Part shown: piece by piece, positions 5,100-30,634 of the stretch
How positions within the stretch are numbered: position 1 is the first letter of the stretch
How the letters are laid out: each line of letters starts with the position of its first letter
Assembly: GCA_015233115.1 (NCBI GenBank)
Contig: JADFYJ010000014.1
Span: forward strand, 11,028-75,027
Direction of reading: 5' to 3'
Length of the DNA: 64,000 bases
DNA from: Candidatus Omnitrophota bacterium
GTDB lineage: Bacteria > Omnitrophota > Gorgyraeia > Zapsychrales > Zapsychraceae
Translations under genes and position numbers: made by a program
The notes under the pieces: generated by a model
Told to the model about the DNA's origin: nothing
Databases searched by the model: none
What the model saw: only the letters and a program-made list of their open reading frames with translations

Positions 5100-5147
5100 G
5101 GCTGTGGAATGCCGTGGCTGGTTTATTACAAAATATTTTCGTTTTTT

Positions 5148-5378
5148 TGTAGCACTGCTCGCGGGAGCTTCCAGCACTACGCGGACATTGCGTCCTTGGT
5201 CGGCTGTTCGCGGGAGCTCACGGCACTACTGCGGACATTGCGTCCTTGGTCGTAGGGGCGATCTCCTGATCGCCCGTACAATAAAGATTTAAAAATCTAT
5301 TATTCCGGGGTTTTGTTTTTGGTTTTGTATTGAAAAAACGAATATTTTGTAAGCGGGCGATCAGGAGATCGCCCCTAC
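5148..5378. repeat. Composite intergenic element: tandem about 45-nt units (GCGGGAGCTC..GGCACTAC.GCGGACATTGCGTCCTTGGTCG) plus inverted pair of REP palindromes
   Basis: Units at 5161-5203 and 5208-5252; REP copies 5252-5275 and 5355-5378 are exact reverse complements; the GGACattgcGTCC hairpin recurs. Confidence 0.75.
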
Positions 5379-5418
5379 AAAAGCGAATAAAAAAAGGTCC
5401 GTCGTTTGGGTATAAAAT

Positions 5419-8220
5419 ATGACTGAAAAAAATAGAATTATTACTATTAGCTTCTGCGACCACTTTATAGAACGGTTGGCTGATCTAATCGTCGAACGGT
5501 ATAAACACTGCGGCTCTGATCTGCGCCGGGTGGCTGTCGTATTCGGAGGCAGGCGGCCGGCTTTGTTTTTGAAGGAGGCTTTGGCGAAGAGATTTAAGGG
5601 GAATTATTTCCCGCCTGCGGTGATTAAGATTGATGATTTGATGAAGGTTATCGTTGAGCAAAATAGTGTTTATGCTCCGGTTCAGGATATGGATGGCGCG
5701 TATTTGCTGTATCAGCTGGTTCAGCAGCATGCCCCGGAATTTTTAAGTCAGCGGCCGACTTTCGCGGAATTTTTACCGTGGGCGAAAGAAATTTCCGCGT
5801 TTATTGATCAACTGGATTTAGAAAATATTGATGATAAGAATTTAATGGATGTGAGCCTAAACGCGGAAATTGGGTTTGATGTACCGGAAGATATTAACGC
5901 GTTATTAAAATATTTAGGTGTGTTGCGCCAAAAATATCATGAAGCATTAAATGAGAAAAAATTATATTCGCGCGGAATGTTGTATCAAAAGGCGGCAGCC
6001 GACGCAGGCAGCGTAAAATTATCCCAATGGGATGAAATTATTTTTGCTAATTTCTTTTATTTGAATGCTTCGGAATTGAAGGTATCCCAAACTTTATGTG
6101 ATAACAAAAAAGCGTTAATGGTTTTTCAAGGTGACAGCCGCAAATGGCCGGTCTTGGAAAAATTGTCCGGGCAATTAAACGCTTCAATTGTCGAAGGCAA
6201 AGCAGTCGATGAGCCAAAATTTGAGCTTAAAATTTATGAAGCTTTTGATGCGCATTCGCAGGTTGGGTTTGTACGGAAGATTTTGAGCCAGACCAAAAAT
6301 TTAGAACGCACAGTCGTGGTTTTGCCTCAGCCGGACCACTTTATTCCTTTATTATCCGAAGTCGCTGGTTCAATCAAAGATTTTAATATTTCCCTCGGCT
6401 ATCCTTTAAAACGCAGTAGTTTATTTTCTTTGTTTGAAAATATATGTGAATGCCAGCTGTCCATGCAGGACGGCAGGTATCACGCGAAAGATTATTTAAA
6501 AGTCCTCATGCATCCGTTTGTGAAAAATTTGTCTTTGTCCCAGGGCCCGGCCGCAAACCGGATTATGGTGCATAAAATTGAAGAAGTGTTAACCGGCCAG
6601 ATTCCGACGGATATTTCCGGAAAATTATTTCTTACTCCTAAAGAAATTTTAGGCACGGAACAAATTTTTGACAGCGCCAGCCGCATGAACGCGAATCAAG
6701 GCGAGGTGAGCCTGGTTCAAGGATTGAAAAATGATTTGAGGCTGATTCATGAGCTGTTTATCGATGGTTGGAGTGATATAAAAACTTTTTATGATTTCGC
6801 GCTGAAAATCAGAACCGTGCTGGACGCGTTAACGGAAAAAAGTTTTCTTAAAAATTATCCGTTAAATATTAATATTGTTAACCGGTTGTATGAACTGACT
6901 GAGCAGTTTTTAAAGGCTGATTTTAACCGCGAAGAATTTTTGATCGAAGAAATTTTTAAAATATTTTATTCCAGCGTGGAACACGAAATCGTGGCATTTT
7001 TAGGGTCACCTTTAAAAGGCCTGCAGATTTTGGGTTTGTTTGAAACCCGTTCGCTGAATTTCGACCAAGTGATTGTCATGGATGCCAATGAAGGCACTTT
7101 ACCCCGTCTGGATTTGCGTTCCAATCTTATTCCCCGGGAAGTGATGTTAGGGTTGAAATTTGACCGGCTCAATATGGAAGAAGAGATACAGCGTTATCAG
7201 TTTATGCGTTTAATATCGTCCGCGAAACAGGTGCATGTGATTTATCAGCACAATAACGGCCATGAGCGCAGCCGTTTTGTGGAAGAGCTGATCTGGGAAG
7301 ATCAGAAAAAACATAAAAAGCTTGAAGCTTTGCCTGTGGTTAAAGGCGCGTTTACGGTTTGTGCGACGCGGGAAATTAAGCGCGTGAAAAAGACCAAGGA
7401 CGTTATCGCTTATTTAAAGGATTTCAAGTTTTCTTCATCCAGCATTAACACGTATTTGAGAAACCCCCTGGATTTTTATTATCAGTATGTTTTGGGCTTG
7501 CGTGAAAAAGAAGACCTGTTGGATGAAGTGGAAGCCAAAGAAATTGGAATTTATTTTCATTCTCTGCTGGAAGAAACCTTTAAGCCTTTTATCGGAAAAA
7601 CTCCGGTGATTGACCGCGCGTTTATGGAAACGTTTCAAAGGATCGCTGAGGAAAAATTCGAGGACCATTTCGGTAAAGCTGGCAGGTCAGCAAATTTTCT
7701 TTTAAAAACAGTCGTGGATGAGCGGATCAAACGGTTTTTAGAGAATGAGCGGTTGTCAGAGGACCGGCAGATTAAACAAATATTATTTTTAGAACAGCGT
7801 TTTACGCATGAAGTTCAACTTCCAGGGGGGAAAGTTCATCTGAATTATGTTTTTGACCGTATTGACGAAATGGCGGACGGCTCAATTATGATTTTGGATT
7901 ATAAATCCGGCGGGACAGATAAAATGCCTAAATCGATTGAGAATATGCGGGATTTGAGTTTTTCTCGTAAAGCCTTGAAAGATAACGTGCGTTCATTCCA
8001 GCTGCCATTGTATTTTTATTATCTGACCCAAAAATATCCGGGGCGCAAATTGAATGCGGCACTATACAGTTTACGCACCATGAAAAATTTTTACTTTATT
8101 ACAGACAAAATGGCGGATTTTTCTTATGATGACATTAATAAATTTTACCTGCAAGCATTAGATTTTGTGATCACCGAGATTCGTAACCCTCATGTGGAGT
8201 TTGAAGAAGATGTGGAATAA
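5419..8220 (+). CDS. AddB-like partner protein with C-terminal PD-(D/E)xK nuclease motif, no intact Walker A
   Basis: 933 aa, directly downstream of helicase-nuclease; C-terminal FDRIDEMADGSIMILDYKSGG (RecB-family nuclease motif); N-terminus lacks GxGKT. Confidence 0.5.
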   Translation: MTEKNRIITISFCDHFIERLADLIVERYKHCGSDLRRVAVVFGGRRPALFLKEALAKRFKGNYFPPAVIKIDDLMKVIVEQNSVYAPVQDMDGAYLLYQLVQQHAPEFLSQRPTFAEFLPWAKEISAFIDQLDLENIDDKNLMDVSLNAEIGFDVPEDINALLKYLGVLRQKYHEALNEKKLYSRGMLYQKAAADAGSVKLSQWDEIIFANFFYLNASELKVSQTLCDNKKALMVFQGDSRKWPVLEKLSGQLNASIVEGKAVDEPKFELKIYEAFDAHSQVGFVRKILSQTKNLERTVVVLPQPDHFIPLLSEVAGSIKDFNISLGYPLKRSSLFSLFENICECQLSMQDGRYHAKDYLKVLMHPFVKNLSLSQGPAANRIMVHKIEEVLTGQIPTDISGKLFLTPKEILGTEQIFDSASRMNANQGEVSLVQGLKNDLRLIHELFIDGWSDIKTFYDFALKIRTVLDALTEKSFLKNYPLNINIVNRLYELTEQFLKADFNREEFLIEEIFKIFYSSVEHEIVAFLGSPLKGLQILGLFETRSLNFDQVIVMDANEGTLPRLDLRSNLIPREVMLGLKFDRLNMEEEIQRYQFMRLISSAKQVHVIYQHNNGHERSRFVEELIWEDQKKHKKLEALPVVKGAFTVCATREIKRVKKTKDVIAYLKDFKFSSSSINTYLRNPLDFYYQYVLGLREKEDLLDEVEAKEIGIYFHSLLEETFKPFIGKTPVIDRAFMETFQRIAEEKFEDHFGKAGRSANFLLKTVVDERIKRFLENERLSEDRQIKQILFLEQRFTHEVQLPGGKVHLNYVFDRIDEMADGSIMILDYKSGGTDKMPKSIENMRDLSFSRKALKDNVRSFQLPLYFYYLTQKYPGRKLNAALYSLRTMKNFYFITDKMADFSYDDINKFYLQALDFVITEIRNPHVEFEEDVE

Positions 8221-10219: not shown

Positions 10220-10220
10220 C

Positions 10221-10262
10221 ACCGCGCCGGAGGACCTACGATCCACCGACGCGGTGTTCCAT
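10221..10262. terminator. GC-rich hairpin downstream of TMTC-like paralog 1
   Basis: caccgcgccgg...ccaccgacgcggtgttcc imperfect inverted repeat sharing a core with 14069-14100 and 58616-58675. Confidence 0.45.
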
Positions 10263-12282: not shown

Positions 12283-14080
12283 ATGGTTAAAAATTTTATT
12301 ATTGGCTGGTGTTGTTCTTCTTTGTTATTCCAATACTTTTCATGCTCCTTTCCAATATGACGATTATATTTTTGTCTCTGGTAATCCGAATATCCGCGAT
12401 TTAACAGATATTAAAGCGTTATGGCATTCTCAACCGCAATATTCCCGTTTTGTCGCCACTGTTAGCTTTGCTTTGAATTATCATTTTGGCAAGTTGAATG
12501 TGTTTGGTTATCATGTTGTCAATTTATTGATCCATCTGATGAATGGGCTGTTAGTGTGGTGGCTGATCAAACTATTGATGGCCACTCCCGGACTTAATAA
12601 TCATAAACTATCAAAATATAAAGACAATATAGGATGGGTGAGCGCACTTTTGTTCATTGCTCATCCCTTACAGACAGAGGCCGTGACTTATATTTGTCAA
12701 AGATATGCGTCCCTGGCAACCTTGTTTTATCTGCTGGCCATGGGTTGGTATTTAAAAGCACGGCTGAGCGGGCAGAAAAAATTTTTTGTTATGTGCGCGG
12801 TGAGTGCGCTGTTGGGTATGTTCACCAAAGAATTCACCATGACTTTGCCGGTCATGATCATAATGACGGAATGGATGATGTTTGAACATAAAAAATGGGA
12901 TTGGAAAAATACGGTTTTGTTCGGATTGGTGCTGTTAGGATTTTTAATGATTGTTCCTGCTTTGATGAGGTTTAATTTTTTCTGGGCCATTTTTGAGCCT
13001 AAGCCGTCATCGTCTCATATTTGGGATGTGATTACCTTGGTTCCTTATGTGATGACGCAATTGAAAGTGTGGGTGGTGCTGTTAGGAAAAGTCTTGATAC
13101 CGATCCATCAGAATTTGGATTATGATTTTCCGCTGGTCCATAATTTTGGCCAGATTGATGTCTGGGGCAGCGCGGTGATTTTATTGGGTCTTTTGATATT
13201 CGCCATTATATATTATCGGAAAAATCTTTTGGTCAGTTATGGGATTATGTGGTTTTTTGTGGCCATGAGCATTGAAATGGTGCCGCGGATTTATGTCATT
13301 TTTGAACACAAGATGTATTTGCCGTTGGCGGGTTTATGCATGGCGTTTACGAGTTTGTGGCAGGATAAGGTGGAAGATGACAAAGTGCGTATCATTATCA
13401 TGACTACGCTGATTGTGGCTTTTGGCTTTCTTACGTTTCAGCGCAACGCGGTTTGGAAAAGCACGTTATCTTTATGGGCGGATACTGTCAGCCATTCACC
13501 GGATAAACCTTCGGCTAATCATATGTTGGCTTATTCTTATATTGAGAGCGGTGATCTGGACACGGGCATGTTGTATCTGGAAAAAACCTTAAGTATTGAT
13601 CGGTTTTATTTTAAAGCGATTTATAACCGCGCGTTTGTGTATTTAGAACGGGGACAATTGGATAAAGCTTTAAAAGAATTGAATGAATGTCTTCGCTTGA
13701 GTCCGACATATTCCCGGGCCTATGTTAAGCGGGGATTGGCATATACGCAAATGGGAAATATTCCTAAAGCGTTGGAAGACTATGCCAAAGGGATGGAATT
13801 GGAACCTAGATTTTCCGGCGCGTATCTTAATCGGGGTGTGGCTTATTACAAAATCGGCGAATTTGATTTAGCGATTAAGGATTTTTCAAAAGCTATTGCT
13901 TTGGACCCGGATTTGGCCGGCGCGTATTTTAACCGGTTTTCTGCGTACAAATCTAAAGGGGAGACGCAGAAAGCGTTGAATGAGGTTTTATACATTACTA
14001 AAAATAATATGAAGCTAAACCCGGAACAAATTGCGGAAATGGAAAAATATTTAAAGGAAAACCTCCGCGTCGGTGGTTAG
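12272..14080 (+). CDS. TMTC/PMT-like membrane protein with C-terminal TPR repeats, paralog 3
   Basis: Near-identical blocks to paralog 2 (MTEWMMFEHKKWDWKNTVLFGLVL); start overlaps paralog 2 stop. Confidence 0.55.
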   Translation: MQNKWLKILLLAGVVLLCYSNTFHAPFQYDDYIFVSGNPNIRDLTDIKALWHSQPQYSRFVATVSFALNYHFGKLNVFGYHVVNLLIHLMNGLLVWWLIKLLMATPGLNNHKLSKYKDNIGWVSALLFIAHPLQTEAVTYICQRYASLATLFYLLAMGWYLKARLSGQKKFFVMCAVSALLGMFTKEFTMTLPVMIIMTEWMMFEHKKWDWKNTVLFGLVLLGFLMIVPALMRFNFFWAIFEPKPSSSHIWDVITLVPYVMTQLKVWVVLLGKVLIPIHQNLDYDFPLVHNFGQIDVWGSAVILLGLLIFAIIYYRKNLLVSYGIMWFFVAMSIEMVPRIYVIFEHKMYLPLAGLCMAFTSLWQDKVEDDKVRIIIMTTLIVAFGFLTFQRNAVWKSTLSLWADTVSHSPDKPSANHMLAYSYIESGDLDTGMLYLEKTLSIDRFYFKAIYNRAFVYLERGQLDKALKELNECLRLSPTYSRAYVKRGLAYTQMGNIPKALEDYAKGMELEPRFSGAYLNRGVAYYKIGEFDLAIKDFSKAIALDPDLAGAYFNRFSAYKSKGETQKALNEVLYITKNNMKLNPEQIAEMEKYLKENLRVGG

Positions 14081-14100
14081 GCCTCCGACGCGGTGTTCCT
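14069..14100. terminator. GC-rich hairpin downstream of TMTC-like paralog 3
   Basis: ctccgcgtcggtgg ttagg cctccgacgcggtgttcc. Confidence 0.5.
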
Positions 14101-14163
14101 GGGTTGTTGTTGACTGCCCATACGTTTTGTGCTAGTTTATACGACAATGATTTTGGGTTTTAC

Positions 14164-14266
14164 GGTTGATAGTTGATGGTTTTTGGTTTTTGGAAAAAGC
14201 GAATAATTTCGATAACCAACAACCAGCAACCAGCAACCAACAACCAACAACCCATAACCATCAACA
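14164..14266. repeat. Inverted TGGTTTT/GTTGATG and CAACCA arrays flanking an AAAAAGCGAATAAT box upstream of yggS
   Basis: ggttgatagttgatggtttttggtttttgg ... aaaaagcgaataatttcg ... ataaccaacaaccagcaaccagcaaccaacaaccaacaacccataaccatcaac. Confidence 0.7.
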
Positions 14267-14276
14267 TTTTGGTCAC

Positions 14277-14972
14277 ATGATTTCAGAAAATTTACAGAAA
14301 ATTCGGGGAGAAATTGCTGATATTTGCCGGCGGGCAGGCCGCAGGGCGGATGATATCATTTTGATCGGCGCATCGAAGTACGCTAACGCCGAGCAGATTA
14401 AAGAAGCCATTGCCGCAGGATTGGAATATATCGGTGAAAACCGGGTGCAGGACGCTTTAGAAAAATTCGCGGCATTTGACCGGCTGGGGATTAAAGTGCA
14501 GCGGCATATGATCGGCCATTTGCAAACCAATAAGGCGAAGCAGGCGGTTGAAAATTTTGATCTGATTCAATCAGTTGACAGCTTGAAGCTGGCGCAAGAA
14601 ATTGAAAAACACGCCTCCCGGATGAACAAGGTGATGGATATCCTTTTACAGATTAATACGTCGGGTGAGGAGCAAAAATTCGGCGCGGATACTCAAGATG
14701 TGTTTGATTTGGTTAAAGGAGCGGCGGATTTGCCTCATGTACGGATATTAGGGCTTATGACCATGGGGCCATTAGTGGAGACTGCGGACCGTGAATTGGC
14801 TCGTCGGTGTTTTAGGCAATTAAAGGAATTTTCAGATATGATTCGCCGGGAATTTTCAGATCATCCTAAAATAGAAATGAAATATCTTTCTATGGGGATG
14901 TCCGGCGATTACGATATGGCGCTGGAAGAAGGTGCTAATATGATTAGAATCGGGAGGGCTATATTCTTATGA
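14277..14972 (+). CDS. yggS: YggS/PLPBP family pyridoxal-phosphate homeostasis protein
   Basis: IGHLQTNKAK...MGMSGDYDMALEEGANMIRIGRAIF; start moved to ATG at 14277 because upstream ORF extension is made of CA-rich repeats. Confidence 0.8.
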   Translation: MISENLQKIRGEIADICRRAGRRADDIILIGASKYANAEQIKEAIAAGLEYIGENRVQDALEKFAAFDRLGIKVQRHMIGHLQTNKAKQAVENFDLIQSVDSLKLAQEIEKHASRMNKVMDILLQINTSGEEQKFGADTQDVFDLVKGAADLPHVRILGLMTMGPLVETADRELARRCFRQLKEFSDMIRREFSDHPKIEMKYLSMGMSGDYDMALEEGANMIRIGRAIFL

Positions 14973-15766
14973 GTAAAAAAATGACGGTAGGAATTATCGG
15001 CGGAGGAAATATGGGCACGGCTATCGCGGCAGGAATTTGGAACGCGTATGACGTCTATGTGTGTGAGAAAGATAAAAAGCGGGAGGCTTTATTACGGCGG
15101 AAATATTCGGTTAAGACCGTCGATATTGCCAGTTTGGTTAAGAATTGTAAAGTACTCGTCCTGGCCGTTAAACCGCAAAATATTGATGAGGTTTTGGATT
15201 TGATGAACGGAAGGGTTGGACAAGATAAAATTTTGATATCAGTCGTGGCTGGGATTACTTCGGCTTTTCTGGAAAAACGTTTGGGAGGAAAAGTGCGGGT
15301 CATCCGTGCTATGCCGAATTTGCCGGCGCAAATCCGAGAAGGAATTACGGGCATTTCCAAAGGACAACACGCAAAGCCGCATGATTTGAAAGTCGGCGCA
15401 TTGATTTTAGGGAATATCGGACAGACGGTGGTGGTTGATGAAAAATTAATTAACGCGATTACGGCTGTTTCGGGCAGTGGACCGGCTTATGTGTTTTTAT
15501 TTTTAGAAAACTTGGTGAATTCGGCTGTAGCGCTAGGGTTAAGTAAAGATATGAGTATGAAATTGTCCATGCAAACAATTAAAGGCAGTATCAGTTTAAT
15601 TGAAAAAACCAAACAATGCCCGTCGCTCTTGAGGGAGCAGGTGACCTCAAAAGGCGGAACCACTCAAGCTGCCCTGGATGTTTTTGCGGAACATCGTTTT
15701 GATAAAATATTTTGTTCAGCCGTAAAAGCCGCGGAAAAACGTGCGAAAGAATTGGCGAGAAATTAA
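14969..15766 (+). CDS. proC: Pyrroline-5-carboxylate reductase
   Basis: N-terminal GIIGGGNMGTAIAAG Rossmann motif; C-terminal VTSKGGTTQAALDV P5CR signature. Confidence 0.85.
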   Translation: MSKKMTVGIIGGGNMGTAIAAGIWNAYDVYVCEKDKKREALLRRKYSVKTVDIASLVKNCKVLVLAVKPQNIDEVLDLMNGRVGQDKILISVVAGITSAFLEKRLGGKVRVIRAMPNLPAQIREGITGISKGQHAKPHDLKVGALILGNIGQTVVVDEKLINAITAVSGSGPAYVFLFLENLVNSAVALGLSKDMSMKLSMQTIKGSISLIEKTKQCPSLLREQVTSKGGTTQAALDVFAEHRFDKIFCSAVKAAEKRAKELARN

Positions 15767-15772
15767 CAAAAC

Positions 15773-15817
15773 AGTATGTGGTATGTAGCATGTAGGATGT
15801 CGTGAAAAAACGATTAG
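15773..15817. repeat. GTATGTN tandem array plus GAAAAAACGATTAGC box downstream of proC (no inverted partner)
   Basis: agtatgtggtatgtagcatgtaggatgtcgtg then aaaaaacgattagc. Confidence 0.7.
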
Positions 15818-15894
15818 CAATAAAAGCGCAAGGGGCGATTCCTGCCTACCGGCAGGCAGGCACGAATTGTCCGATAAGATACGGGAGAATTAAT

Positions 15895-16755
15895 ATGGCA
15901 AAAATCGGCATTATCGGCGGCAGTGGGTTATATCAGATTGAAGGCATTTCACAAGTCAAAGAAATTTCCGATGTTAACACCCCCTTTGGTAAAGCGTCGG
16001 ATTCTTTGTTCGCGGGAAAATTGGATGGGACGGATGTGGTTTTTTTGTCACGCCACGGCCGCGGGCATCGTATTTCTCCGTCGGAAATAAATTATCGTGC
16101 GAATATTTTTATGATGAAAAAGCTGGGAGTGGACGCGATTATTTCCGTATCCGCTTGCGGTAGTTTACGCGAAGAAATGAAGCCGTTGGATTTTGTGGTG
16201 CCAGACCAATTTGTGGATCGCACGCATCAGGCGCGGAAAATGACTTTTTTTGAGAATGGAATTGTCGCGCATGTTTCTTTGGCAGATCCGGTCAGTCCTG
16301 AATTAACTAAAATACTCATTGAAAGCTGCCGTTCTTTAGGACTAAATGTTCATCCCAAGGGAACGTATCTGAACATGGAAGGCCCGCAATTTTCGACCAA
16401 AGCGGAATCAAATTTATATCGTACCTGGGGCATGGATATTATCGGCATGACCACCATGTCAGAAGCCCGTTTAGCGAGAGAAGCAGAAATTTCTTACGCG
16501 ACTTTAGCCGCGGTGACGGATTATGACTGCTGGCATCCAGGCCATGATGCGGTGACTGTGGATATGATTATTGGTTATTTGATGAAAAACGCGGAAAACG
16601 CGAAGAGAATTTTGAAAACGGCGATTCCAAAGATTGGGCAGTTAAATAGTTTCAGCGCCCAAGACGCGCTAAAATTCGCCCTGATCACAGACAAAAAAGT
16701 CATACCGGAACAAATTAAAAAAGATTTGAATATATTGATTGAAAAATATATTTAG
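15895..16755 (+). CDS. mtnP: 5'-methylthioadenosine/purine nucleoside phosphorylase
   Basis: MAKIGIIGGSGLY...VVFLSRHGRGHRISPSEINYRANI...DAIISVSACGSL; ATG at 15895 with GGGAG RBS. Confidence 0.75.
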   Translation: MAKIGIIGGSGLYQIEGISQVKEISDVNTPFGKASDSLFAGKLDGTDVVFLSRHGRGHRISPSEINYRANIFMMKKLGVDAIISVSACGSLREEMKPLDFVVPDQFVDRTHQARKMTFFENGIVAHVSLADPVSPELTKILIESCRSLGLNVHPKGTYLNMEGPQFSTKAESNLYRTWGMDIIGMTTMSEARLAREAEISYATLAAVTDYDCWHPGHDAVTVDMIIGYLMKNAENAKRILKTAIPKIGQLNSFSAQDALKFALITDKKVIPEQIKKDLNILIEKYI

Positions 16756-16950
16756 TATGTAGTATGTGGTATGTGGTGAAAAAAAGCGATTGATGAACAG
16801 ACGTAATGGATTACAAAATAGATGCATGCCCGCGAAAGCGGGAATTTAAAAGAAAAAAATCTTTTGTTTTTTAACATTTCATTTTTCATATTTAACTTTT
16901 AACTTAATTTTTGTTTTTACTACATACGACATACTACGTACTACATACTA
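16755..16950. repeat. Intergenic island: (GTATGTN)x3 array, GAAAAAAAGCGATTGATGA box, AT-rich spacer, reverse-complement (NACATAC)x4 array
   Basis: Left arm gtatgtagtatgtggtatgtggtg 16755-16778; right arm ctacatacgacatactacgtactacatact 16920-16950. Confidence 0.8.
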
Positions 16951-16967
16951 TTAAAATTGGATAACAA

Positions 16968-19772
16968 ATGGATTACCAAAAAACATTAAATTTACCGAAC
17001 ACAAATTTTTCCATGAAAGCCGGGTTGGCTGAAAAAGAACCGGCTATGCTGGAAAAATGGAATAATGAACAGCTTTATCAGGAAATCAGAAAAAAATGCC
17101 AGGGCAAAAAGCCGTTTATTCTGCACGACGGGCCTCCGTATGCCAACGGCAATATTCATATCGGCCACGCTTTAAATAAAGTGCTGAAAGATATTATTGT
17201 TAAATACCGCACCATGCGGGATTTCGACGCGTTATATATTCCGGGATGGGATTGTCATGGTCTGCCGATTGAACATCAATTATTAAAAGAGATGAATAAA
17301 CATAAAGGCGAAGTGGATTGTGTGGATTTTCGGCATAAGGCCAATGAATACGCCATGAAATACGTTGGGATCCAGCGTGATCAATTTAAGCGTTTGGGTA
17401 TTTTCGGGCAATGGGATAATCCGTATTTGACCTTAAAACCTGATTATGAATATTGGATTTTAAATTCTTTGGCAAGGTTGAATAAAGACGGTTATATTTA
17501 CCGCGGGCTTAAACCAGTCAATTGGTGTTCGTCTTGTGAAACGGCTTTAGCGGAAGCGGAAGTGGAATATGAAAATCACACTTCTCCGTCAGTGTATGTT
17601 AAATTTTCCGTGAAAAATCCTGAGGCGATCGGGTTAAAGAACCAGAAGGTCAGTTTGCTTATTTGGACAACGACTCCGTGGACCTTGTTGGCGAATGTGG
17701 CTGTGGCCGTTCACGCGAAGTTTGATTATGTGGGGGCTAAAGTTGGTGATGAGATTTTAATTTTGGAAAAGAATTTATCCGCGTCAATTTTTGCCAAAGC
17801 GAAAATCGAAAATTTCCAGATTGAAAAAGAATTTAAAGGCCAGGATCTGACGGCTTTGAAATATGAACATCCATTCGGTGTTAAGACGAATTGCTGTGTG
17901 GTGACTGTTGATTATGTGACAAATGAAGACGGCACAGGTTTGGTGCATACGGCGCCGGGCCATGGGCAGGACGATTTTCAAACCGGGCTAAAATATAATT
18001 TAGATGTATTAATGCCGGTCGATGGACGAGGAATTTATACAAAAGAAGCCGGCGCTTTCGCGGGCCAACATGTATTCAAGGCGAATGAGCTGGTCATTAA
18101 AGATTTACAGGATCGGGGGCTTTTATTGTTAAAAGAAAATATTCCCCATTCATATCCGCATTGTTGGCGCTGTAAAAAGCCGATTATTTTCAGGGCGACC
18201 AAACAATGGTTTATGAATATTGAGCATAAAAATTTACGTCAACGTTTAAAAGATACGGTGATCAATCAGGTTCAATGGATTCCGGAAGCAGGCCGTGAAC
18301 GAATTTTAGGCATGGTCACTACGCGCCCGGACTGGTGTTTATCGAGGCAAAGAGTCTGGGGTGTTCCGATTCCTGATGTGGTATGTCAGTCATGCGGCGA
18401 GCATACTTTATTCACCGAAGTCATTGAAAAATTTAGAGATTTGGCTAAAGAAAAAGGTTCAGATGTGTGGTTTGAAAAAGATGTGCAAGAATTTCTGCCG
18501 CAAAATACTAAGTGCCCAAAGTGTTCTGGTATGGAATTTACTAAAGGGGTTGATATTTTGGATGTGTGGTTTGATTCAGGAGTTAGCCATCAGGCTGTGA
18601 TTAAAGGCATGATGGGCAAAGACATCCCGGCTGATCTTTATCTGGAAGGATCAGATCAGCATAGAGGCTGGTTTCAATCTTCCATCATTCCGGCTGTGGC
18701 TATGGAAGGCATTGCGCCATATAAGGCTGTTTTGACGCATGGTTTCGTAGTGGATGGAGAAGGTCGAAAAATGTCAAAATCTTTGGGAAATGTCATATCT
18801 CCGCTGGATATTATTAAGAATAGTGGAGCGGATGTTCTAAGGTTGTGGATCGCTTCAAGTTTATATAGTGATGATATACGCGCTTCAAAAGAGATTCTAG
18901 ACCGGTTAGTAGACGCGTACCGTAAGATCCGTAATACGCTTAGATATTTGTTAGGGAATCTGGATCAATTCAATCCGGATACTGATATCGTTCCGTATTC
19001 TCAGCTGTGTGATCTTGACCAATGGGCCTTAACCCGTCTTTATGCCATGATGAGCCGTATTCAGGCGCATTATGAATCGTATGAATTTTCAAAAGTGTAT
19101 CAGGAAATTTATCATTTTTGTAATGAGGATTTGTCATCTTTTTATCTTGACATTTTAAAGGACAGACTGTATATTTCATCCACTCGATCACTCGAGCGCA
19201 GGTCTGCTCAAACCGTTCTTTACCATATTTTAAATCATTTAATCCGCGCTATGGCTCCGATTTTGACTTTTACTTCTGAAGAAATTTTTAGTTCTATGCC
19301 TAAAAACGCGGAACTGAAAAATACCCAGAGTGTGCATTTGCTGAATTGGTTGAAACTGCCAGAAGAGTGGAAGAATGACGTGGCAAGCAAACGTTTTGAA
19401 ATATTAATCGCTTTACGCCCGTTTGTTCTTAAAGCGCTGGAAGATAAACGCCGGGAGAATATGATTGGCAGTCCGCTGGAAGCGAAAATTATTTTTAAAA
19501 CCGCCAGTGATCATGATTTTAATTATTTAACGAAGGAAGTTAAAGACCTTCCTCAAATGTTCATTGTGTCTCAAGTGTTGGTCGAGAAAACCGGTCAAGT
19601 TGAGAAAGCCTTGAGTGAACAATTTGCCCATACTGCTATTGAAATTCAAAAAGCTGACGGGAGTAAATGCAGTCGATGTTGGAATTACAGAACGGATGTT
19701 GGACAAAATCATGAGCATCCGGATTTGTGTAACCGGTGTAACACCATTGTAAAGGAGATAGTGAATGCCTAA
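16968..19772 (+). CDS. ileS: Isoleucyl-tRNA synthetase
   Basis: HIGHALNK (HIGH) and KMSKSLGN (KMSKS) motifs; 934 aa; C-terminal Cys-rich zinc-binding tail. Confidence 0.95.
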   Translation: MDYQKTLNLPNTNFSMKAGLAEKEPAMLEKWNNEQLYQEIRKKCQGKKPFILHDGPPYANGNIHIGHALNKVLKDIIVKYRTMRDFDALYIPGWDCHGLPIEHQLLKEMNKHKGEVDCVDFRHKANEYAMKYVGIQRDQFKRLGIFGQWDNPYLTLKPDYEYWILNSLARLNKDGYIYRGLKPVNWCSSCETALAEAEVEYENHTSPSVYVKFSVKNPEAIGLKNQKVSLLIWTTTPWTLLANVAVAVHAKFDYVGAKVGDEILILEKNLSASIFAKAKIENFQIEKEFKGQDLTALKYEHPFGVKTNCCVVTVDYVTNEDGTGLVHTAPGHGQDDFQTGLKYNLDVLMPVDGRGIYTKEAGAFAGQHVFKANELVIKDLQDRGLLLLKENIPHSYPHCWRCKKPIIFRATKQWFMNIEHKNLRQRLKDTVINQVQWIPEAGRERILGMVTTRPDWCLSRQRVWGVPIPDVVCQSCGEHTLFTEVIEKFRDLAKEKGSDVWFEKDVQEFLPQNTKCPKCSGMEFTKGVDILDVWFDSGVSHQAVIKGMMGKDIPADLYLEGSDQHRGWFQSSIIPAVAMEGIAPYKAVLTHGFVVDGEGRKMSKSLGNVISPLDIIKNSGADVLRLWIASSLYSDDIRASKEILDRLVDAYRKIRNTLRYLLGNLDQFNPDTDIVPYSQLCDLDQWALTRLYAMMSRIQAHYESYEFSKVYQEIYHFCNEDLSSFYLDILKDRLYISSTRSLERRSAQTVLYHILNHLIRAMAPILTFTSEEIFSSMPKNAELKNTQSVHLLNWLKLPEEWKNDVASKRFEILIALRPFVLKALEDKRRENMIGSPLEAKIIFKTASDHDFNYLTKEVKDLPQMFIVSQVLVEKTGQVEKALSEQFAHTAIEIQKADGSKCSRCWNYRTDVGQNHEHPDLCNRCNTIVKEIVNA

Positions 19773-20157
19773 TAAAAATGTTGAAAAGATGGATCCGAAG
19801 AAAATGGCAGCATATAAGGATCTTCTTATAAAGATGAAAAATGAAATCCTTCACAATATCGATACGATGAATAAGGAAACTGGCGGAAATATGGCGGATT
19901 CAAAAGACGTTTCTGGACACGTGATGCATATGGCAGATGTGGCGACGGATATGTACGACCGTGAATTTGCTTTAGGTTTAGCCTCCAATGAACGTGATAT
20001 TCTGGTGAAGATTGAAGGGGCTTTAAAGCGTATTGAGAGCGGAACATTTGGTATTTGTATGGGGACAGGTAAACCTATTTCTCAGGCTCGTCTCAAAGCG
20101 ATCCCATATGTAGAGTATTGTCTTGAACATCAGGAAAAATTAGAGCAGGAAAAATGA
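19765..20157 (+). CDS. TraR/DksA-family C4 zinc-finger protein (ileS-lspA linked)
   Basis: 130 aa; position between ileS and lspA where a DksA/TraR-like gene commonly sits; Cys/His near C-terminus (GICMGTG...YCLEH). Confidence 0.4.
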   Translation: MPNKNVEKMDPKKMAAYKDLLIKMKNEILHNIDTMNKETGGNMADSKDVSGHVMHMADVATDMYDREFALGLASNERDILVKIEGALKRIESGTFGICMGTGKPISQARLKAIPYVEYCLEHQEKLEQEK

Positions 20158-20633
20158 AACGTTTAACCAAGTCTCAGTTTGACACCATTCTTGCCCTGGT
20201 GGCGAGCTTATCCGTTATTCTGATCGACCGTTTTACAAAAATAGTATTTTCAAAGTTTTTGTCTTTAGGTGAATCATGGCCCGTCTGGCGTAATGTCCTT
20301 CACATGACCCTGGTTCATAATACGGGTATTGCTTTTGGTTTTTTTAAAGACCACGGAGTTGTCTTTATCATTATCCCGTTGATCGCAGTGGCCCTCCTGA
20401 TTTATAATATTTTTTATTACCGTCAAAATAATGAAGCTTTGAGCCGGGGATACATTGTTGGTTTTTCTTTGATCTTGGGCGGAGCGATCGGGAATTTGAT
20501 TGACCGGATTTTTTACGGTTATGTGATCGATTTTATCGATTTCAGGGTTTGGCCGGTTTTTAATATCGCCGACAGCGCTATCACTATCGGCGCAGTGATT
20601 ATAGTATTGAAATGTTTGAGAACGAGTGAATAA
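20154..20633 (+). CDS. lspA: Lipoprotein signal peptidase (signal peptidase II)
   Basis: NTGIAFGFF and FNIADSAITIG motifs; 4 TM segments. Confidence 0.9.
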   Translation: MKRLTKSQFDTILALVASLSVILIDRFTKIVFSKFLSLGESWPVWRNVLHMTLVHNTGIAFGFFKDHGVVFIIIPLIAVALLIYNIFYYRQNNEALSRGYIVGFSLILGGAIGNLIDRIFYGYVIDFIDFRVWPVFNIADSAITIGAVIIVLKCLRTSE

Positions 20634-20640
20634 AATGCGA

Positions 20641-20837
20641 GTATGTCGTATGTAGTATGTGGTATGTCGTGAAAAGCGATTGATGAGAAAATTAAAAAAA
20701 CGCTAAATTATAAAATCGAATAAGAAAATATTGTTATATCGTTTGAGAGGCGCGGTTACGATCTTTTCTAAATATTATTTATTTTTTCCGCGTTTTTTGT
20801 TTTTTTCTACATACTACATACCACATACGACATACCT
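20641..20837. repeat. Intergenic island of same family between lspA and rluD
   Basis: Left gtatgtcgtatgtagtatgtggtatgtcgtg 20641-20671 then gaaaagcgattgatga; right ctacatactacataccacatacgacatacc 20808-20837. Confidence 0.8.
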
Positions 20838-20856
20838 AAATTAGGATTAATTTAAC

Positions 20857-21759
20857 ATGTCCCCAATTTATAAAATTTCCGAAGACTCTGCCCAGAAACG
20901 TTTGGATGTTTTTCTGACCGAAATGTTGACGGAAATTCCTTCCCGGTCGCTTATCCAAAAATTAATAGATAACGGCCACGTCAAGGTTAATGAACATCTC
21001 ACTAAACCCGGGCACAAGCTTCGAGAGGGTGATGATGTCTGGGTCGAAATACCTGATGATTTTTTTTCTGCCCGTTATGCTGCGCCGGAAAATCTGCCTT
21101 TGGATGTTTTTTATGAAGATGAAAGTTTTTTATTGATCAATAAAGCGTCTGGGATGACTGTTCATCCGGGAGCTAACTGCTCTGCCGGTACTGTGGTGAA
21201 TGCTTTATTGTTTAAAGAAATAGAACTTTCTGCGAGTGATGATGAAATGCGGCCGGGGATTGTGCACCGTTTGGATAAAGACACGTCAGGATTGCTTTTG
21301 GTTGCGAAAGACAATATCGCGCACGCGAAATTGGCTAAACAATTTGAACGGCACTCGATCCGCAAAAATTATATCGCTTTGGTTGAAGGGGAAGTGTCGT
21401 TTGATGAAGGAAAAATTGATCAGCCTTTAGGACCGCATCCGCGGGATCATGAGAAACGAGCTGTCCGGCAGGATGACAAGGGAAAAGATTCTGTGACGTA
21501 TTACAAAGTCATTAAACGGCATCAAGGCGTGAGTTTAGTGGCGTTGTACCCTCATACCGGACGCACTCACCAATTGCGTGTGCATATGGCGTATTTAAAA
21601 CATCCCATTTTAGGAGACGAAAAATACGGCCGCCGTAATACTTTTCCCCGTTTGGCCTTACATGCTATGTCCATCGGATTCCAGCATCCCCGCACCAACC
21701 GTTACGTAGAATTTTCCTCAGTCCCGCCCGTGGAGTTTCTTGAAAAGGTAGGACTGTAA
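20857..21759 (+). CDS. rluD: RluA/RluD-family 23S rRNA pseudouridine synthase with S4 domain
   Basis: Catalytic HRLDKDTSGLLLVAKD motif; N-terminal S4-like domain. Confidence 0.85.
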   Translation: MSPIYKISEDSAQKRLDVFLTEMLTEIPSRSLIQKLIDNGHVKVNEHLTKPGHKLREGDDVWVEIPDDFFSARYAAPENLPLDVFYEDESFLLINKASGMTVHPGANCSAGTVVNALLFKEIELSASDDEMRPGIVHRLDKDTSGLLLVAKDNIAHAKLAKQFERHSIRKNYIALVEGEVSFDEGKIDQPLGPHPRDHEKRAVRQDDKGKDSVTYYKVIKRHQGVSLVALYPHTGRTHQLRVHMAYLKHPILGDEKYGRRNTFPRLALHAMSIGFQHPRTNRYVEFSSVPPVEFLEKVGL

Positions 21760-21797
21760 AGAGTGACAAAGTAACCGAGTAACAGAGTACGCCGCAT

Positions 21798-21866
21798 GCA
21801 GGAGCTCTCGGCATTACTCGGACATTGCGTCCTTGGTCGTAGGGGCGATCTCCCGATCGCCCGTAA
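21798..21866. repeat. Second copy of the about 45-nt unit + REP palindrome downstream of rluD
   Basis: gcaggagctctcggcattactcggacattgcgtccttggtcgtaggggcgatctcccgatcgcccgtaac. Confidence 0.75.
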
Positions 21867-22155
21867 CAAAAGTATCGTTTTTTGTTTTTTAAAATTGATA
21901 TTTTGAAACAATTTTTAAACGGATGACGGTAAAGCGACAATTTTGAAGCGGGAGATCTGGAGATCTCCCCTACGAAAAATGTGGATATTTTGTCAAAAAA
22001 TGCTCGTTTTTGCGGCGATTCACAAATCGTTTTTAAAACAAAGCGAAAATCCGGATAAATCTTCTTTATTAATTGCAAATTTCAAATATAATAAGTTTAG
22101 TTTAAATGCGTATATTATTTATTTTTGCTATGTTATTTTTTTTAGGGGAGATCGT

Positions 22156-24364: not shown

Positions 24365-24574
24365 ATGAATGAATTAATTTTTGAAATCACACAAGAAAAT
24401 GACGGCGGATTTGTGGCTGAATGTTTGACAGAATCAATTTTCACCCAAGCTGATACATGGGAGGAGTTGAGAAAACAGGTTATAGACGCCGTTCACGGAT
24501 ATTTTTTTGACCAACCTAAACCCGAAGTGATCCATTTGCATTTTGTCCGCGATGAGATTCTTGCTACAGCATGA
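24365..24574 (+). CDS. hicB: HicB-like antitoxin (UPF0150)
   Basis: 69 aa; overlaps start of a HicA-like gene; HicB N-domain-like sequence (GGFVAECLTESIFTQADTWEEL). Confidence 0.5.
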   Translation: MNELIFEITQENDGGFVAECLTESIFTQADTWEELRKQVIDAVHGYFFDQPKPEVIHLHFVRDEILATA

Positions 24575-24810
24575 AAATACCACGCAATTTAAATGGCCGC
24601 GCTTTAGCTCAATCACTTTGTCAGCATTGGAAATATCTTCAGGTGCATCAAACCGGCAGTCATATCATTTTGGATACAGAAGAACCGTTTCACCAGCGTA
24701 TAGCAATTCCTGCCCATGAAAGCCTACGGATAGGCACACTTAATCATATTTTAAAGTCTGTAGCGAATCATAAACGGATTAATCGTCAAGAAATCCTTGA
24801 CAAGTTGTAA
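24571..24810 (+). CDS. hicA: HicA/YcfA-like mRNA interferase toxin
   Basis: 79 aa; GSH...IPAHESLRIGTLNHILKSV matches the YcfA/HicA pattern (GSHh...P.H..l..GTL..ILK). Confidence 0.55.
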   Translation: MKIPRNLNGRALAQSLCQHWKYLQVHQTGSHIILDTEEPFHQRIAIPAHESLRIGTLNHILKSVANHKRINRQEILDKL

Positions 24811-25899: not shown

Positions 25900-25932
25900 G
25901 TTTGAGGTTTAATAAAAAGGGGACGATAAAAA

Positions 25933-25990
25933 GGGGGACGGAGCCCTATTTCGAAATACGAAATAGGGCTCCGTCCCCCTTTTTTCTCCC
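25933..25990. terminator. Bidirectional rho-independent terminator between convergent gap and GT2 genes
   Basis: GGGGGACGGAGCCCTATTTCG / CGAAATAGGGCTCCGTCCCCC perfect hairpin flanked by A-run upstream and T-run downstream. Confidence 0.7.
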
Positions 25991-25998
25991 CCTTTTTT

Positions 25999-27633
25999 CT
26001 ATTTCCTACTCTTATCCGTCACCCAGAATTCCATATATTTGCCGAACATCAAGCGGGTCTGCGCGTCGAGGGCGGGGAGGGCGCTTAAGCCTACTAGGAC
26101 AAAAGGAATGGTTAGCCATTCCAGGATATGGCCTAGTTTTTTCTTCCAGGGTTTTTCCCCTTCCGGGTCCGGGAGCATCGCGATCGACAGGGCAGTCGAT
26201 ATAAATAAGGAAATGGTAGATAATTGAAATATGGTCTGCGCGATGTGCGGTTCGTTGTAATAAATGACTGAATGCGCAAAACGGTGCCCGGCAATGAGGG
26301 CAGGAAGCCAACTCATCGTTGTTAACAGAAATCCCCACGTGGCCCAGGACACATGATCTTCCAGCATTTTAAATCCATGACGGATTTTATTATAAAGAGA
26401 AATGTTGGGGCTTTGCATAAAACCTCGAATAAGAATGGGAAAATTTTCTGCTCCGTAAGCCCAGCGTCGTCTTTGTTTATAAATATTTTTCATGGTTTTA
26501 ACCCAGTCTTCCGCGACGGTCGCGTCCATGGACAGCGTGGCATAGATCGGCATGACCTGATATTTTCCTTCATAAAATAAATAAGCTTTCCAGAAAATAG
26601 CTGAGTCGTCGGATATCATATCTCTCGGCCAATATCCGATTTCAACTAAAGCTTTAAAACTCATACTATGACTTGAAAATGTGACCAGTTTTTCCGGGTT
26701 AGTGGATTCGATGAGCTGGAAAAACGAAGATCCGGTTTCCATAACGCGGGAAAAGGGCGGGACATTCCAAATATTATTGTGGTATACGGGAATAGGCTGA
26801 TAACTAGTATGGTCGCGATCCGGGCTGGTCATGAAAGAATAGGTCAGGGCGGAGAAATATTTTTTGTCGACGACCGTGTCCGCATCAAAACAAGAAACCA
26901 CGACCTGGCTAAAGTCGATTTTTTTCTTCTCTAAATATTGGGAACAATGTTCAGCCGCGTATGAAGCATTGGCGCCTTTAACCCGGGCTTCGCCCGGCAA
27001 TCCAGCCGGATGAAAAATAACCAGGAAATCCATGAAATGGGTTTTATATTCTTCTTGCAGTCTGAGCGCCGCTTCTTTTGTCGCTGAGGGGGCTCGTTCT
27101 TCAACGGCGAATACGATCAACATTTGATGAGTGGAAAATTCTTGCTCAGCTAAAGACACAATCCCTGGACGAATAATTTCTTCACCTTCTTTGGCGGCTG
27201 GGATGATGACCACATGGTAGATGTCAGATGATAAAGGCGGTAGGGATTTGCACTGCATTAATTTTTTTAAATTGTTTTTATGGATTCCGACAGAAATAAA
27301 ATCATTGAACGACGCGGATTCGAAAGCATTTTTAAAAGTCAGATGTTGATGCAGATCGTCAATTTCTTTAATGCGTTTAAGCCATTCGGTTTTACGTTCA
27401 ATATTAAAGCGCAAATAGGAGATCGTCAGTAGGATTGTTAAATAGATCAGCCGGATAAACCAAAAAAATATTAATGCGATCGCGATAATAGAAGCGCGTA
27501 AAGGATCGAAAATCGAGAGAAACAGGATTCCCAGGAGAATTGACCAACTGCATATTCCGGGTAGAATTTCCAAAAATCGTTGAAGCCGTTTTTCTTTTTC
27601 GCTTAAATTTGATTTAGAATAATTAAAAGACAT
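25999..27633 (-). CDS. Family-2 processive glycosyltransferase (cellulose/chitin/hyaluronan-synthase-like)
   Basis: QRRRWAYG (QxxRW) processivity motif; DADT (DxD); N- and C-terminal TM clusters. Confidence 0.65.
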   Translation of the reverse strand: MSFNYSKSNLSEKEKRLQRFLEILPGICSWSILLGILFLSIFDPLRASIIAIALIFFWFIRLIYLTILLTISYLRFNIERKTEWLKRIKEIDDLHQHLTFKNAFESASFNDFISVGIHKNNLKKLMQCKSLPPLSSDIYHVVIIPAAKEGEEIIRPGIVSLAEQEFSTHQMLIVFAVEERAPSATKEAALRLQEEYKTHFMDFLVIFHPAGLPGEARVKGANASYAAEHCSQYLEKKKIDFSQVVVSCFDADTVVDKKYFSALTYSFMTSPDRDHTSYQPIPVYHNNIWNVPPFSRVMETGSSFFQLIESTNPEKLVTFSSHSMSFKALVEIGYWPRDMISDDSAIFWKAYLFYEGKYQVMPIYATLSMDATVAEDWVKTMKNIYKQRRRWAYGAENFPILIRGFMQSPNISLYNKIRHGFKMLEDHVSWATWGFLLTTMSWLPALIAGHRFAHSVIYYNEPHIAQTIFQLSTISLFISTALSIAMLPDPEGEKPWKKKLGHILEWLTIPFVLVGLSALPALDAQTRLMFGKYMEFWVTDKSRK

Positions 27634-27698
27634 GTTGGTTGATGGTTTTTGGTTGTTGGTTTTTGGTTGTCATCCCCGAGTGCTTCAATCGGGGATCC
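27634..27698 (-). promoter_or_regulatory. Conserved leader element (hairpin + CA-rich CAACCA array) immediately upstream of GT2 gene start
   Basis: Transcribed-strand sequence GGATCCCCGATTGAAGCACTCGGGGATGACAACCAAAAACCAACAACCAAAAACCATCAACCAAC then ATG; about 90% identical copy at 29241-29290. Confidence 0.6.
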
Positions 27699-27772
27699 AG
27701 TAATAAAATTTTTCGTTTTTTTAACAGCCAATCGTTTTTTGTTTGACCGATCACCTTTCACCTATCACTTTT

Positions 27773-29218: not shown

Positions 29219-29240
29219 GAAATAATAAAATTGTCAGTTT

Positions 29241-30594: not shown

Positions 30595-30634
30595 TTACCT
30601 GTCACTAATTATTTAAGAAATAGGTTGTGTTGAT

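Follow-up and report, generated by a model that had tools for sequence, protein, structure and literature searches.

Results

The box-bearing operon and its intergenic spacers

The window analysed here is a stretch of 64,000 nucleotides from a Candidatus Omnitrophota bacterium (assembly GCA_015233115.1, contig JADFYJ010000014.1), and our subject is a short A-rich box that recurs in its intergenic spacers beside arrays of tandem 7-9-nt repeats. The window has a GC content of 41% and is about 93% coding, with nearly all genes on the plus strand; its intergenic DNA amounts to 4.2 kb (~7%), is 35% GC and contains many A-runs. The operon that bears the box has the conserved order yggS-proC-mtnP-ileS-dksA-lspA-rluD (Pfam labels), and its IleS is 100% identical to MBF0479416.1, a protein of a Candidatus Omnitrophica metagenome-assembled genome that is alone in its 90% cluster.

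In the mtnP|ileS spacer (element E5; elements are numbered along the window), an array of AGTATGT/GGTATGT heptamers at 16754-16775 (array 1) overlaps the mtnP stop codon TAG (16753-16755) and is followed directly by the box under study, GTGAAAAAAAGCGATTGATGA, read from the sequence at 16776-16796. The loop beyond it carries a small GC hairpin, CCCGCGAAAGCGGG, at 16829-16842, a module that occurs again at 42775-42794; then come a T-run, AATTTTTGTTTTTA, at 16906-16919, which in the predicted fold pairs with the A-run of the box, and an array of NACATAC heptamers at 16920-16949 (array 2), the reverse complement of array 1, ending 18 nt before the ileS ATG at 16968. The lspA|rluD spacer (E6) repeats this plan: array 1, GTATGTN x4, at 20641-20668, begins 7 nt past the lspA stop, the box GTGAAAAGCGATTGATGAG is read at 20669-20687, and the T-run CGCGTTTTTTGTTTTTTTC with a NACATAC x4 array 2 occupies 20789-20836, ending 20 nt before the rluD ATG at 20857. 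In the proC|mtnP spacer (E4, 15774-15818) array 1 reads GTATGTG GTATGTA GCATGTA GGATGTC and is followed by the box GTGAAAAAACGATTAGC and, at 15832-15863, by a palindrome resembling repetitive extragenic palindromic (REP) sequences; this intergenic region has no array 2. The GTG of the E4 box, at 15802, opens an open reading frame (ORF) in frame with mtnP, listed as 15802-16755; the true start is the ATG at 15895, giving a protein of 286 amino acids that matches relatives, and 15802-15894 is likely a gene-calling trap. Upstream of yggS lies a minimal element (E3, 14164-14265), in which array 1 (GGTTGAT/GGTTTTT, 14164-14193) runs into the box AAAAAGCGAATAAT at 14194-14207, the apical loop of the predicted hairpin, and array 2 (AACCAAC x7.4, 14214-14265) ends 11 nt upstream of the yggS ATG at 14277.

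Copies, enrichment and placement of the box

The core of the box is A(4-7)-R-CGA-W-T, and its fullest form is GTGAAAA(AAA)GCGATTGATGA. Because the complete GCGATTGATG(A/C) tail is limited to three copies, the others having just the A-run and RCGAWT core, we define the family by A-run plus RCGAWT. A first-pass annotation, made from the sequence alone, had described a near-fixed box beside variable arrays and had proposed a protein-binding site or promoter element. Its copies gtgaaaaaaagcgattgatga (16776-16796), gtgaaaagcgattgatgag (20669-20687) and aaaaacgattgatgcggg (76-93) were read back exactly where it had placed them, and aaaaagcgatgggtgaaaaacgatagg was read back at 31441-31467. It had also correctly recognised gtgaaaaaacgattagc and aaaaagcgaataat, but these lie one base from where it put them, at 15802-15818 and 14194-14207, and the minus-strand copy aaaaaacgattggctg sits at 27725-27740 rather than 27716-27730, about nine bases off. 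Further forward copies occur at 5332-5346, 5379-5390, 27707-27722 (minus strand) and 41274-41287, and degenerate ones at 39306-39321 and 49097-49111. Reverse-oriented copies are found at 5136-5148, 21873-21890 and 42800-42812, with one more inside 36961-37017; they adjoin array 2 (42800-42812) or REP-like palindromes. Full copies are always oriented in the sense of the downstream gene.

No other word is as over-represented as the box in the intergenic DNA of the window. The string AAAARCGA occurs 22 times in the window, and 16 of these occurrences fall within the intergenic 7%, against 1.23 +/- 1.05 expected from dinucleotide-preserving shuffles, none of 500 of which reached 16. The 18-mer consensus, at up to three mismatches, matches three times in the window (0.27 expected), and an unbiased k-mer count returned AAAAACGA as the 8-mer that recurs in the largest number of co-directional intergenic regions, with TTTTGTTT second. 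Position is equally constrained: in eight intergenic regions the A-run begins 1-10 nt after the stop-proximal array stops, and in a ninth 21 nt after it, a spacing that departs from uniform placement with a Fisher-combined p of ~9e-8 over the nine. Array and box can moreover be aligned as one homologous block, at 90% identity over 41 nt for 16756-16796 versus 20649-20686, and at 89% for 15773-15808 versus 20640-20675. The association that had been proposed is thus real, strongly intergenic and tied to the arrays; a frequency in coding sequence equal to that between genes, or a lack of bias relative to the arrays, which the first-pass annotation had named as counter-evidence, was found in neither case. 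A mini-ORF reading of the box (GTG AAA AAA AGC GAT TGA) was ruled out, as frames and lengths vary among copies. Readings as an attC/integron, T-box, parS or DnaA-box site were dropped from the sequence, their core motifs being absent and the flanking genes being housekeeping genes.

Anatomy of the elements

Arrays were identified by Tandem Repeats Finder and by direct reading. Judged from its sequence context, the box is one module of a larger, lineage-specific mosaic element and not a free-standing site. In full order the element runs from the stop codon through array 1, box, variable loop, T-run and reverse-complement array 2 to the start codon 11-20 nt beyond; the earlier description had captured the box beside its array, but had overlooked the second, reverse-complement array before the next start, the long hairpins, and the REP-adjacent and mirror copies. 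Array 1 lies at the upstream stop or at most 7 nt from it and is built of G/T-rich, C-poor units of 7-9 nt (GTATGTN, AGTAACNG, GGTTKWT, AGGTGAW, ATAGGTT or GTGATAAAG). The loop consists of AT-rich DNA, a small GC hairpin or a REP-like palindrome, and a T-run (TTTTGTTTTT) frequently precedes array 2, whose units are C/A-rich and G-poor (NACATAC, CNNAGTAA read as TTACTNNG, or AACCAAC). In nine cases the distance from the end of array 2 to the ATG is 0-20 nt, usually 11-20 nt and in one case 0 nt, with the ribosome-binding region inside that interval. The elements measure 100-340 bp, are present in many copies and hold no ORF.

Array polarity tracks gene direction throughout, G-rich arrays following stops and C-rich arrays preceding starts. 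Minus-strand genes conform to this rule: at two of them AACCAAM arrays abut the starts, and an AGGTGAW array with box follows a stop. A matrix of duplex energies resolves four array families, and neighbouring spacers of an operon draw on one family: GTATGTN serves proC|mtnP, mtnP|ileS and lspA|rluD, and AGTAACNG serves both the pilB|pilB and the pilB|pilC spacers.

Array pairing and predicted folds

In seven intergenic regions the cognate arrays pair with duplex energies of -32 to -50 kcal/mol, compared with -6 to -25 kcal/mol for off-family combinations, and give predicted stems of 28-43 bp. Folds of whole spacers yielded z-scores of -6.5 (16740-16975), -6.1 (20625-20865), -3.4, -5.1 and -4.2. 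In E5, E6, E13 and E14 the inverted repeat runs on into the A-run, which is predicted to pair with the T-run of the opposite arm; in E3 the box is predicted to form an apical loop of about 20 nt, with array 2 directly after it. Sense RNA folds better than antisense in six of seven elements, and differences between the arms are mostly of the G.U type (25:1 in thermodynamic duplexes, a ratio biased by the choice of register). Both the fold asymmetry and the G.U differences are no more than suggestive of a role at the RNA level on the sense strand. We dropped the 25:1 excess as proof of selection on RNA when it shrank to 11:3 (p=0.057).

Related genomes and wider occurrence

The closest genome found (GCA_015233195.1) has an IleS 82% identical to that of the window and keeps the gene order. 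Its lspA|rluD and proC|mtnP spacers are 4 bp and 9 bp long, its mtnP|ileS spacer is 293 bp long with unrelated content, and no intergenic arrays of 7-8-mers occur in its 22.8-kb locus (L008). At three further loci (L009, L017 and L018; 66-67% identical) the spacers measure 1-90 bp, and these loci likewise hold no such intergenic arrays. The mreC|mreD and pbp2|rodA junctions are also compact in relatives, a fifth contig (P0004), known from its gene map only, has short spacers, and the box core shows no intergenic enrichment in the relatives' loci. Since syntenic junctions are mostly 1-90 bp and array-free in four relatives, the elements are lineage-specific insertions or expansions inside compact operons.

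A genome-collection scan with IleS found the nearest species representative at 51% identity. A metagenome scan for an array followed by GTGAAAA gave six matches, five of them by chance and one a true related hairpin (L015; Ga0114920_10272254, 160-310, minus strand), in which a stop codon is followed by GTATRTN x4, GTGAAAAAGG, a loop, CGTTTTC and a complementary array. This element lies in a 3' untranslated region; beyond it stand a distinct hairpin that resembles a terminator and a promoter-like site, TTGACA-18-TATTGT, with an HU gene adjoining. In a distant member of the Omnitrophota whose IleS is 51% identical (L001), AATGGTGAATGGTGAAAGCGTAATTT occurs after lspA. In the same locus an AATGGTG array with AAAGCGTAATTT stands just after lspA (7455-7490), and a T-run with a C/A-rich heptamer array just before mtnP (2040-2093). 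The modules may thus be widespread but sporadic across the phylum. A viral scan for the array-plus-box pattern gave no matches, and one for the box alone gave six, all of which look like chance, several lying inside ORFs (for example ...REKAIDER...).

Elements elsewhere in the window

At the left edge of the window, E1 (24-114) joins heptamer arrays (24-73), the box GGGAAAAACGATTGATGC (73-90) and a GTAG-type REP palindrome (91-114). E2 (5332-5390) has a box-like GAAAAAACGAATATT, a REP palindrome at 5355-5378 and a second box, AAAAGCGAATAA, with a mirror copy, TTTTCGTTTTTTT, at 5136-5148. After rluD, E7 (21760-21890) comprises an array 1 of AGTRACNR 8-mers (21760-21790), a copy of a 49-bp module, a REP palindrome (21839-21867) and a reverse box/T-run, TATCGTTTTTTGTTTTTT, at 21873-21890. 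E8 lies between two minus-strand genes and reads, on that strand, as an AGGTGAW array 1 (27770-27750), the box AAAAAACGATTGGCTG (27740-27725), a second box AAAAAAACGAAAAATT (27722-27707), a hairpin (27696-27672) and an AACCAAM array 2 (27668-27634) abutting the ATG; its two arrays are not mutually complementary.

Among the remaining plus-strand elements, E10 (mreC|mreD, 31422-31467) has two copies of a 9-mer, GTGATAAAG, and tandem boxes, AAAAAGCGATGGGTG and AAAAACGATAGG, and E11 (pbp2|rodA, 33682-33838) has a GTATGTN array 1 (33682-33709) and a NACATAC array 2 (33809-33838) with no box. In E12 (pilB|pilB, 39255-39464) the first unit of the 8-mer array 1, AGTAACNG, holds the stop codon; a degenerate box, AAACGCGATTGCTGAG, follows at 39306-39321, then a T-run (39384-39411) and array 2, TTACTNNG x6.6 (39412-39464). 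E13 (pilB|pilC, 41204-41519) consists of array 1 (41204-41253), the box AAAAAACGAATGTG (41274-41287) and array 2 (41488-41519), and contains an inverted repeat of 58 nt (41221-41278 versus 41462-41519). E14 (42743-42827) combines ATAGGTT x2.7, an A-run, a hairpin (42775-42794), a reverse box, TTTTCGTTTTTCC (42800-42812), and array 2 (42813-42827). E16, between a response regulator and an Hpt gene (49076-49111), has an 8-mer array, CGAGTAAC CGAGTGAC AGAGC, and a degenerate box, AAAAATGTTGATGGA. An inverted copy of the E4 module, AAAGAAAGCGATTAG..., with its REP-like palindrome, lies on the minus strand at 36961-37017, just upstream of a gene at 37033.

GTAG-type REP palindromes (GTAGGGGCGATCNCCNGATCGCCC) occur in both orientations at 91-114, 5252-5276, 5355-5378 and 21839-21867, with a box 0-16 nt away; the box itself is not palindromic, and most boxes have no adjoining REP. 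Such palindromes are usually mobilised by a RAYT transposase, and no gene for RAYT or another transposase lies within the 64-kb window. A second REP-like family (GGGGCKATTCCTGCCTRCCGG...) is represented at 15832-15863 and, inverted, at 36956-36992, and AAARCGATTAG precedes both copies. The two REP-like families thus each carry the box at a near-fixed distance, and the box and the second-family palindrome move jointly as one module.

Discussion

Our preferred reading, held with moderate confidence, is that the box serves as the array-proximal linker of a lineage-specific, modular family of hairpin-forming intergenic repeats, presumably acting as a co-transcribed RNA element. It builds on the anatomy of the elements, their statistics, their polarity with the genes, their predicted folding and their absence from relatives. 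Lying as they do within housekeeping operons, the elements most likely form part of polycistronic mRNA. In a read-through transcript the arrays would zip into a stem of 28-43 bp, based between the stop codon upstream and the ribosome-binding site downstream. Stems of this kind are cut by RNase III or block exonucleases; here, as with Correia and ERIC elements, the effect would be to alter processing and so to uncouple neighbouring cistrons or to tune their stability and translation. The box's A-run would either extend the stem by way of the T-run (E5, E6, E13 and E14) or, in most other copies, stay single-stranded at the stem-loop junction, where an RNA-binding protein (for instance an RNase E-type enzyme, Hfq or a cold-shock-domain protein) could land on or cleave an exposed CGATTG. 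The footprint of a cold-shock-domain protein would be one heptamer, and such a protein is by analogy an attractive candidate partner for box and arrays. One box contains ATTGG, the core of the Y-box. CspB of B. subtilis binds the heptamer GTCTTTG/T (PMC1904285), and the stop-proximal units resemble its pattern (GTNTNTN).

Several points weigh against this interpretation. Both co-transcription and a role at the RNA level are things that we infer, and the well-sampled set comprises about 16 elements in 64 kb of one genome. The A-run is predicted to be unpaired in most copies, so that stem extension accounts for only three or four; E11 is a paired element with no box; and in E4, E8 and E10 the box stands after an orphan array lacking a complementary partner, and it therefore goes with the stop-proximal array independently of the hairpin. 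Free of thermodynamic bias, in an identity-based alignment, the G.U asymmetry is borderline (11:3, p=0.057). A purely selfish or mutational origin, by slippage and quasi-palindrome correction, would give the same anatomy.

A more ambitious version of the RNA interpretation would make the elements a genome-wide "operon punctuation", in which complementary heptamer or octamer arrays at a stop and at the next ribosome-binding site form register-tolerant zipper stems, with array "codes" that differ by operon, and the box is the handle for one trans-acting protein. That protein (of the cold-shock-domain/Y-box type with a 7-nt footprint, Hfq or an endonuclease) would open or cut the stems and so set the relative expression of adjacent cistrons. 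We regard this scheme as speculative and unlikely in its full form.

Among the alternatives to an RNA element, the one that fares best, though still a minority view that we consider somewhat unlikely, is that the box, with no host function, is what remains of a selfish mobile element, whether similar to a transposable element of the miniature inverted-repeat type (MITE) or to a mosaic of the REP or bacterial interspersed mosaic element (BIME) type. The arrays would then be terminal inverted repeats and the box a subterminal recognition sequence for a transposase or recombinase. Consistent with this, elements of 100-340 bp recur in many copies with no ORF, are present or absent relative to relatives at otherwise conserved junctions, as insertion polymorphisms are, and carry MITE-like inverted-repeat termini, with complementary arrays of 17-58 nt in seven intergenic regions; the same array family occupies adjacent intergenic regions, suggesting local spread, and the box keeps a near-fixed distance from GTAG-type REP palindromes. 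However, there is no full-length homology among copies, only arrays, box, T-run and occasional small modules being alignable between otherwise unrelated loops; the four unrelated termini are all tandem 7-8-mers, which would be odd for independent MITE families; and strict polarity with the genes and abutment on stop and start codons are unexpected for random insertion. No transposase or RAYT gene lies in the window, and no target-site duplication was seen at E4, E5, E6 or E11 in comparison with L008, a weak test given ancestral spacers of 4-9 bp.

That the box is a promoter, as the first-pass annotation had suggested as one option, we consider improbable, and nothing supports it as a stand-alone promoter. 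The A-tract would be a proximal subsite resembling an UP element (AAAAAARNR) and TTGATG the -35 hexamer, so that the downstream gene's own transcript would start in the loop and have only array 2 as its leader. By eye, AAAAAAGCG-A-TTGATG does resemble the UP-proximal consensus followed by a sequence that agrees with the -35 hexamer at 4/6 positions, two copies have a weak -10-like hexamer 18 nt downstream (CAAAAT, at 16815, and TAAATT, at 20705), and full copies are always sense to the downstream gene. Yet sigma-70 and terminator scans, which covered 14000-22000 and 27000-43000, found no -35/-10 pair at any box and none on the sense strand of any loop, and promoter and terminator counts in these regions equalled those in shuffled sequence. 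By hand, TTG is present in only 5 of about 14 copies and TAnnnT at 16-19 nt downstream in only one of those five; in E1 a GC-rich REP occupies the -10 position, in E3 the box makes up the 20-nt loop at the tip of a hairpin with array 2 directly after it, and reverse-oriented copies occur. The boxes lie inside operons, whereas a near-consensus sigma-70 promoter, TTGACA-17-TATTAT, is found elsewhere, at 29431-29459 before mreB. A classical bidirectional intrinsic terminator lies at 25914-25997 between convergent genes, and from these canonical signals it follows that the organism uses ordinary signals at operon ends. No intrinsic terminator was detected at boxes or arrays, where T-runs precede array 2 and do not follow a stem. 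Rfam gave no matches at the gathering score over the whole window; once thresholds were relaxed, the matches were all sub-threshold and to plant miRNA precursors, a reflection of generic long hairpins.

Still less probable, on sequence grounds, is a DNA site at which a nucleoid-associated protein of the IHF/HU type would bend intergenic DNA. IHF sites are known in Correia elements and in the RIB/RIP class of E. coli BIMEs, and the box adjoins REP-like palindromes as in RIB/RIP elements; A-tracts are intrinsically bent, and in the three TTGATG copies the complement of the box, CATCAATCGCTTT, agrees by eye with the consensus WATCAANNNNTTR at 11 of 13 positions. The ATCAA core is nevertheless absent in most copies (CGAATA, CGATTA, CGATGG, CGATAG), what is conserved (A-run plus CG) is the portion of an IHF site with the least specificity, and strand polarity with transcription is unexpected for a DNA-bending site. 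Chance low-complexity similarity in A-run-rich spacers of 35% GC has a negligible probability and is excluded by 16 copies versus 1.2 expected (0/500 shuffles), the fixed position (p ~9e-8) and the 36-41-nt blocks at 89-90% identity.

Relation to known repeat families

Returning to the hairpin-forming repeat family that we favour, each of its ingredients has a precedent: MITE-like hairpin repeats, BOX/BIME mosaics and start-proximal heptamer repeats. In the literature that we searched, no intergenic hairpins are described that are built of repeats, use several array "codes", share a box and keep strictly to the polarity of the genes. With the Correia (CREE/NEMIS, Neisseria) and ERIC/IRU (enterobacteria) elements the present one shares its short length (~100-350 bp), multiple copies and non-coding nature, a location in intergenic DNA or 3' untranslated regions, often within operons, long inverted-repeat arms that form an mRNA hairpin (predicted here), and a presence that varies among relatives. 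It differs in that its arms are tandem 7-9-nt arrays of at least four unrelated sequence families, internal homology is limited to box and T-run, no target-site duplication is visible, and orientation strictly follows gene direction. Sequence similarity to those families was neither sought nor expected, and Rfam gave no match. Correia stems are cut by RNase III, and ERIC insertions expose an RNase E site (reviewed in PMC10969869).

The pneumococcal BOX element (boxA-(boxB)n-boxC) and the BIMEs of E. coli offer a second parallel, as modular mosaics with pairing terminal modules (PMC3049150, PMC10969869). They too have a tandem module of variable number, short conserved linkers between palindromes and a tendency to cluster with other repeat types; our box resembles such a linker and also adjoins GTAG-type REP palindromes. 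Here, in contrast, units of 7-9 nt are repeated in place of ones of 45 nt, the stem consists of the tandem module itself, the host belongs to the Omnitrophota and no RAYT gene was seen in the window. Intercistronic RNase III hairpins, with long stems within one polycistronic transcript and the base of the stem between a stop and the next ribosome-binding site, also occur in the early mRNA of phage T7; each T7 site has a unique sequence and internal loops, whereas the present stems are built of repeats.

A third parallel is with the TAACTGA heptamer direct repeats of Beggiatoaceae, cyanobacteria and Bacteroidetes (MacGregor 2015, PMC4679880), for which S1, Csp and CsrA were proposed as binders and which were reported with no structure of their own (PMC4679880). 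As in these, in the cyanobacterial STRR heptamers and in "long simple sequence repeats", our arrays are tandem and intergenic; like TAACTGA they are sense-oriented, near start codons, before housekeeping genes and sporadically distributed, array 2 ending close to the ATG in the nine cases given above. Start codons associated with TAACTGA often have no Shine-Dalgarno sequence. The unit sequences differ, however, the nearest being the AGTAACNG arrays, which lie on the stop-proximal side; there are several unit sequences per genome; a complementary partner array usually follows the preceding stop and gives predicted hairpins; and the arrays are flanked in addition by a conserved box and a T-run. 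If our interpretation is true, the elements would connect start-proximal heptamer repeats of the TAACTGA type with MITE-like hairpin repeats (Correia, ERIC, BOX), and, if they act in mRNA, they would be a compact, recognisable case of expression tuning within operons, by repeat-built hairpins, in an uncultured phylum. In short-read assemblies of metagenome-assembled genomes of this kind, such repeats are likely to cause breaks or false joins, and the array families could act as strain-typing markers.

Other repeats in the window

The spacer between the addA-like and addB-like genes (5100-5418, 319 bp) is filled with repeats; on the P0004 contig a gene for a 96-amino-acid GIY-YIG protein occupies this place. 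The 49-bp unit (CTGCTCGCGGGAGCTCACAGCACTACGCGGACATTGCGTCCTTGGTCGG) forms a tandem pair there (5155-5252) and has a third copy after rluD (21801-21839), each followed by a REP. Small hairpin modules (ATTCCCGCG..CGCGGGAAT and ATCCCCGA..TCGGGGAT) recur in loops at 16829-16842, 42775-42794, 27672-27696 and 29262-29290, and resemble the dRS3 form of Neisseria, ATTCCC-N8-GGGAAT. Palindromes of the CCACCGCGTCGGTGG type stand directly after genes, with no T-runs, at 10220-10261, 14085-14105 and 58612-58668, and may be unconventional terminators or another REP class. Within a 607-bp gap, two small overlapping ORFs (69 and 79 amino acids) at 24365-24810 have a toxin-antitoxin-like layout; a Pfam search at 1e-5 gave no match for them. 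Short 8-mer arrays (AGGTCACA and related) fill short post-stop spacers at 47532-47555 and 55160-55190, with no box. At 53031-53076 self-complementary heptamers (CACATGT/CACAAGT) fill the spacer before a gene that probably starts near 53098, and this array is of a different kind, palindromic within its unit.

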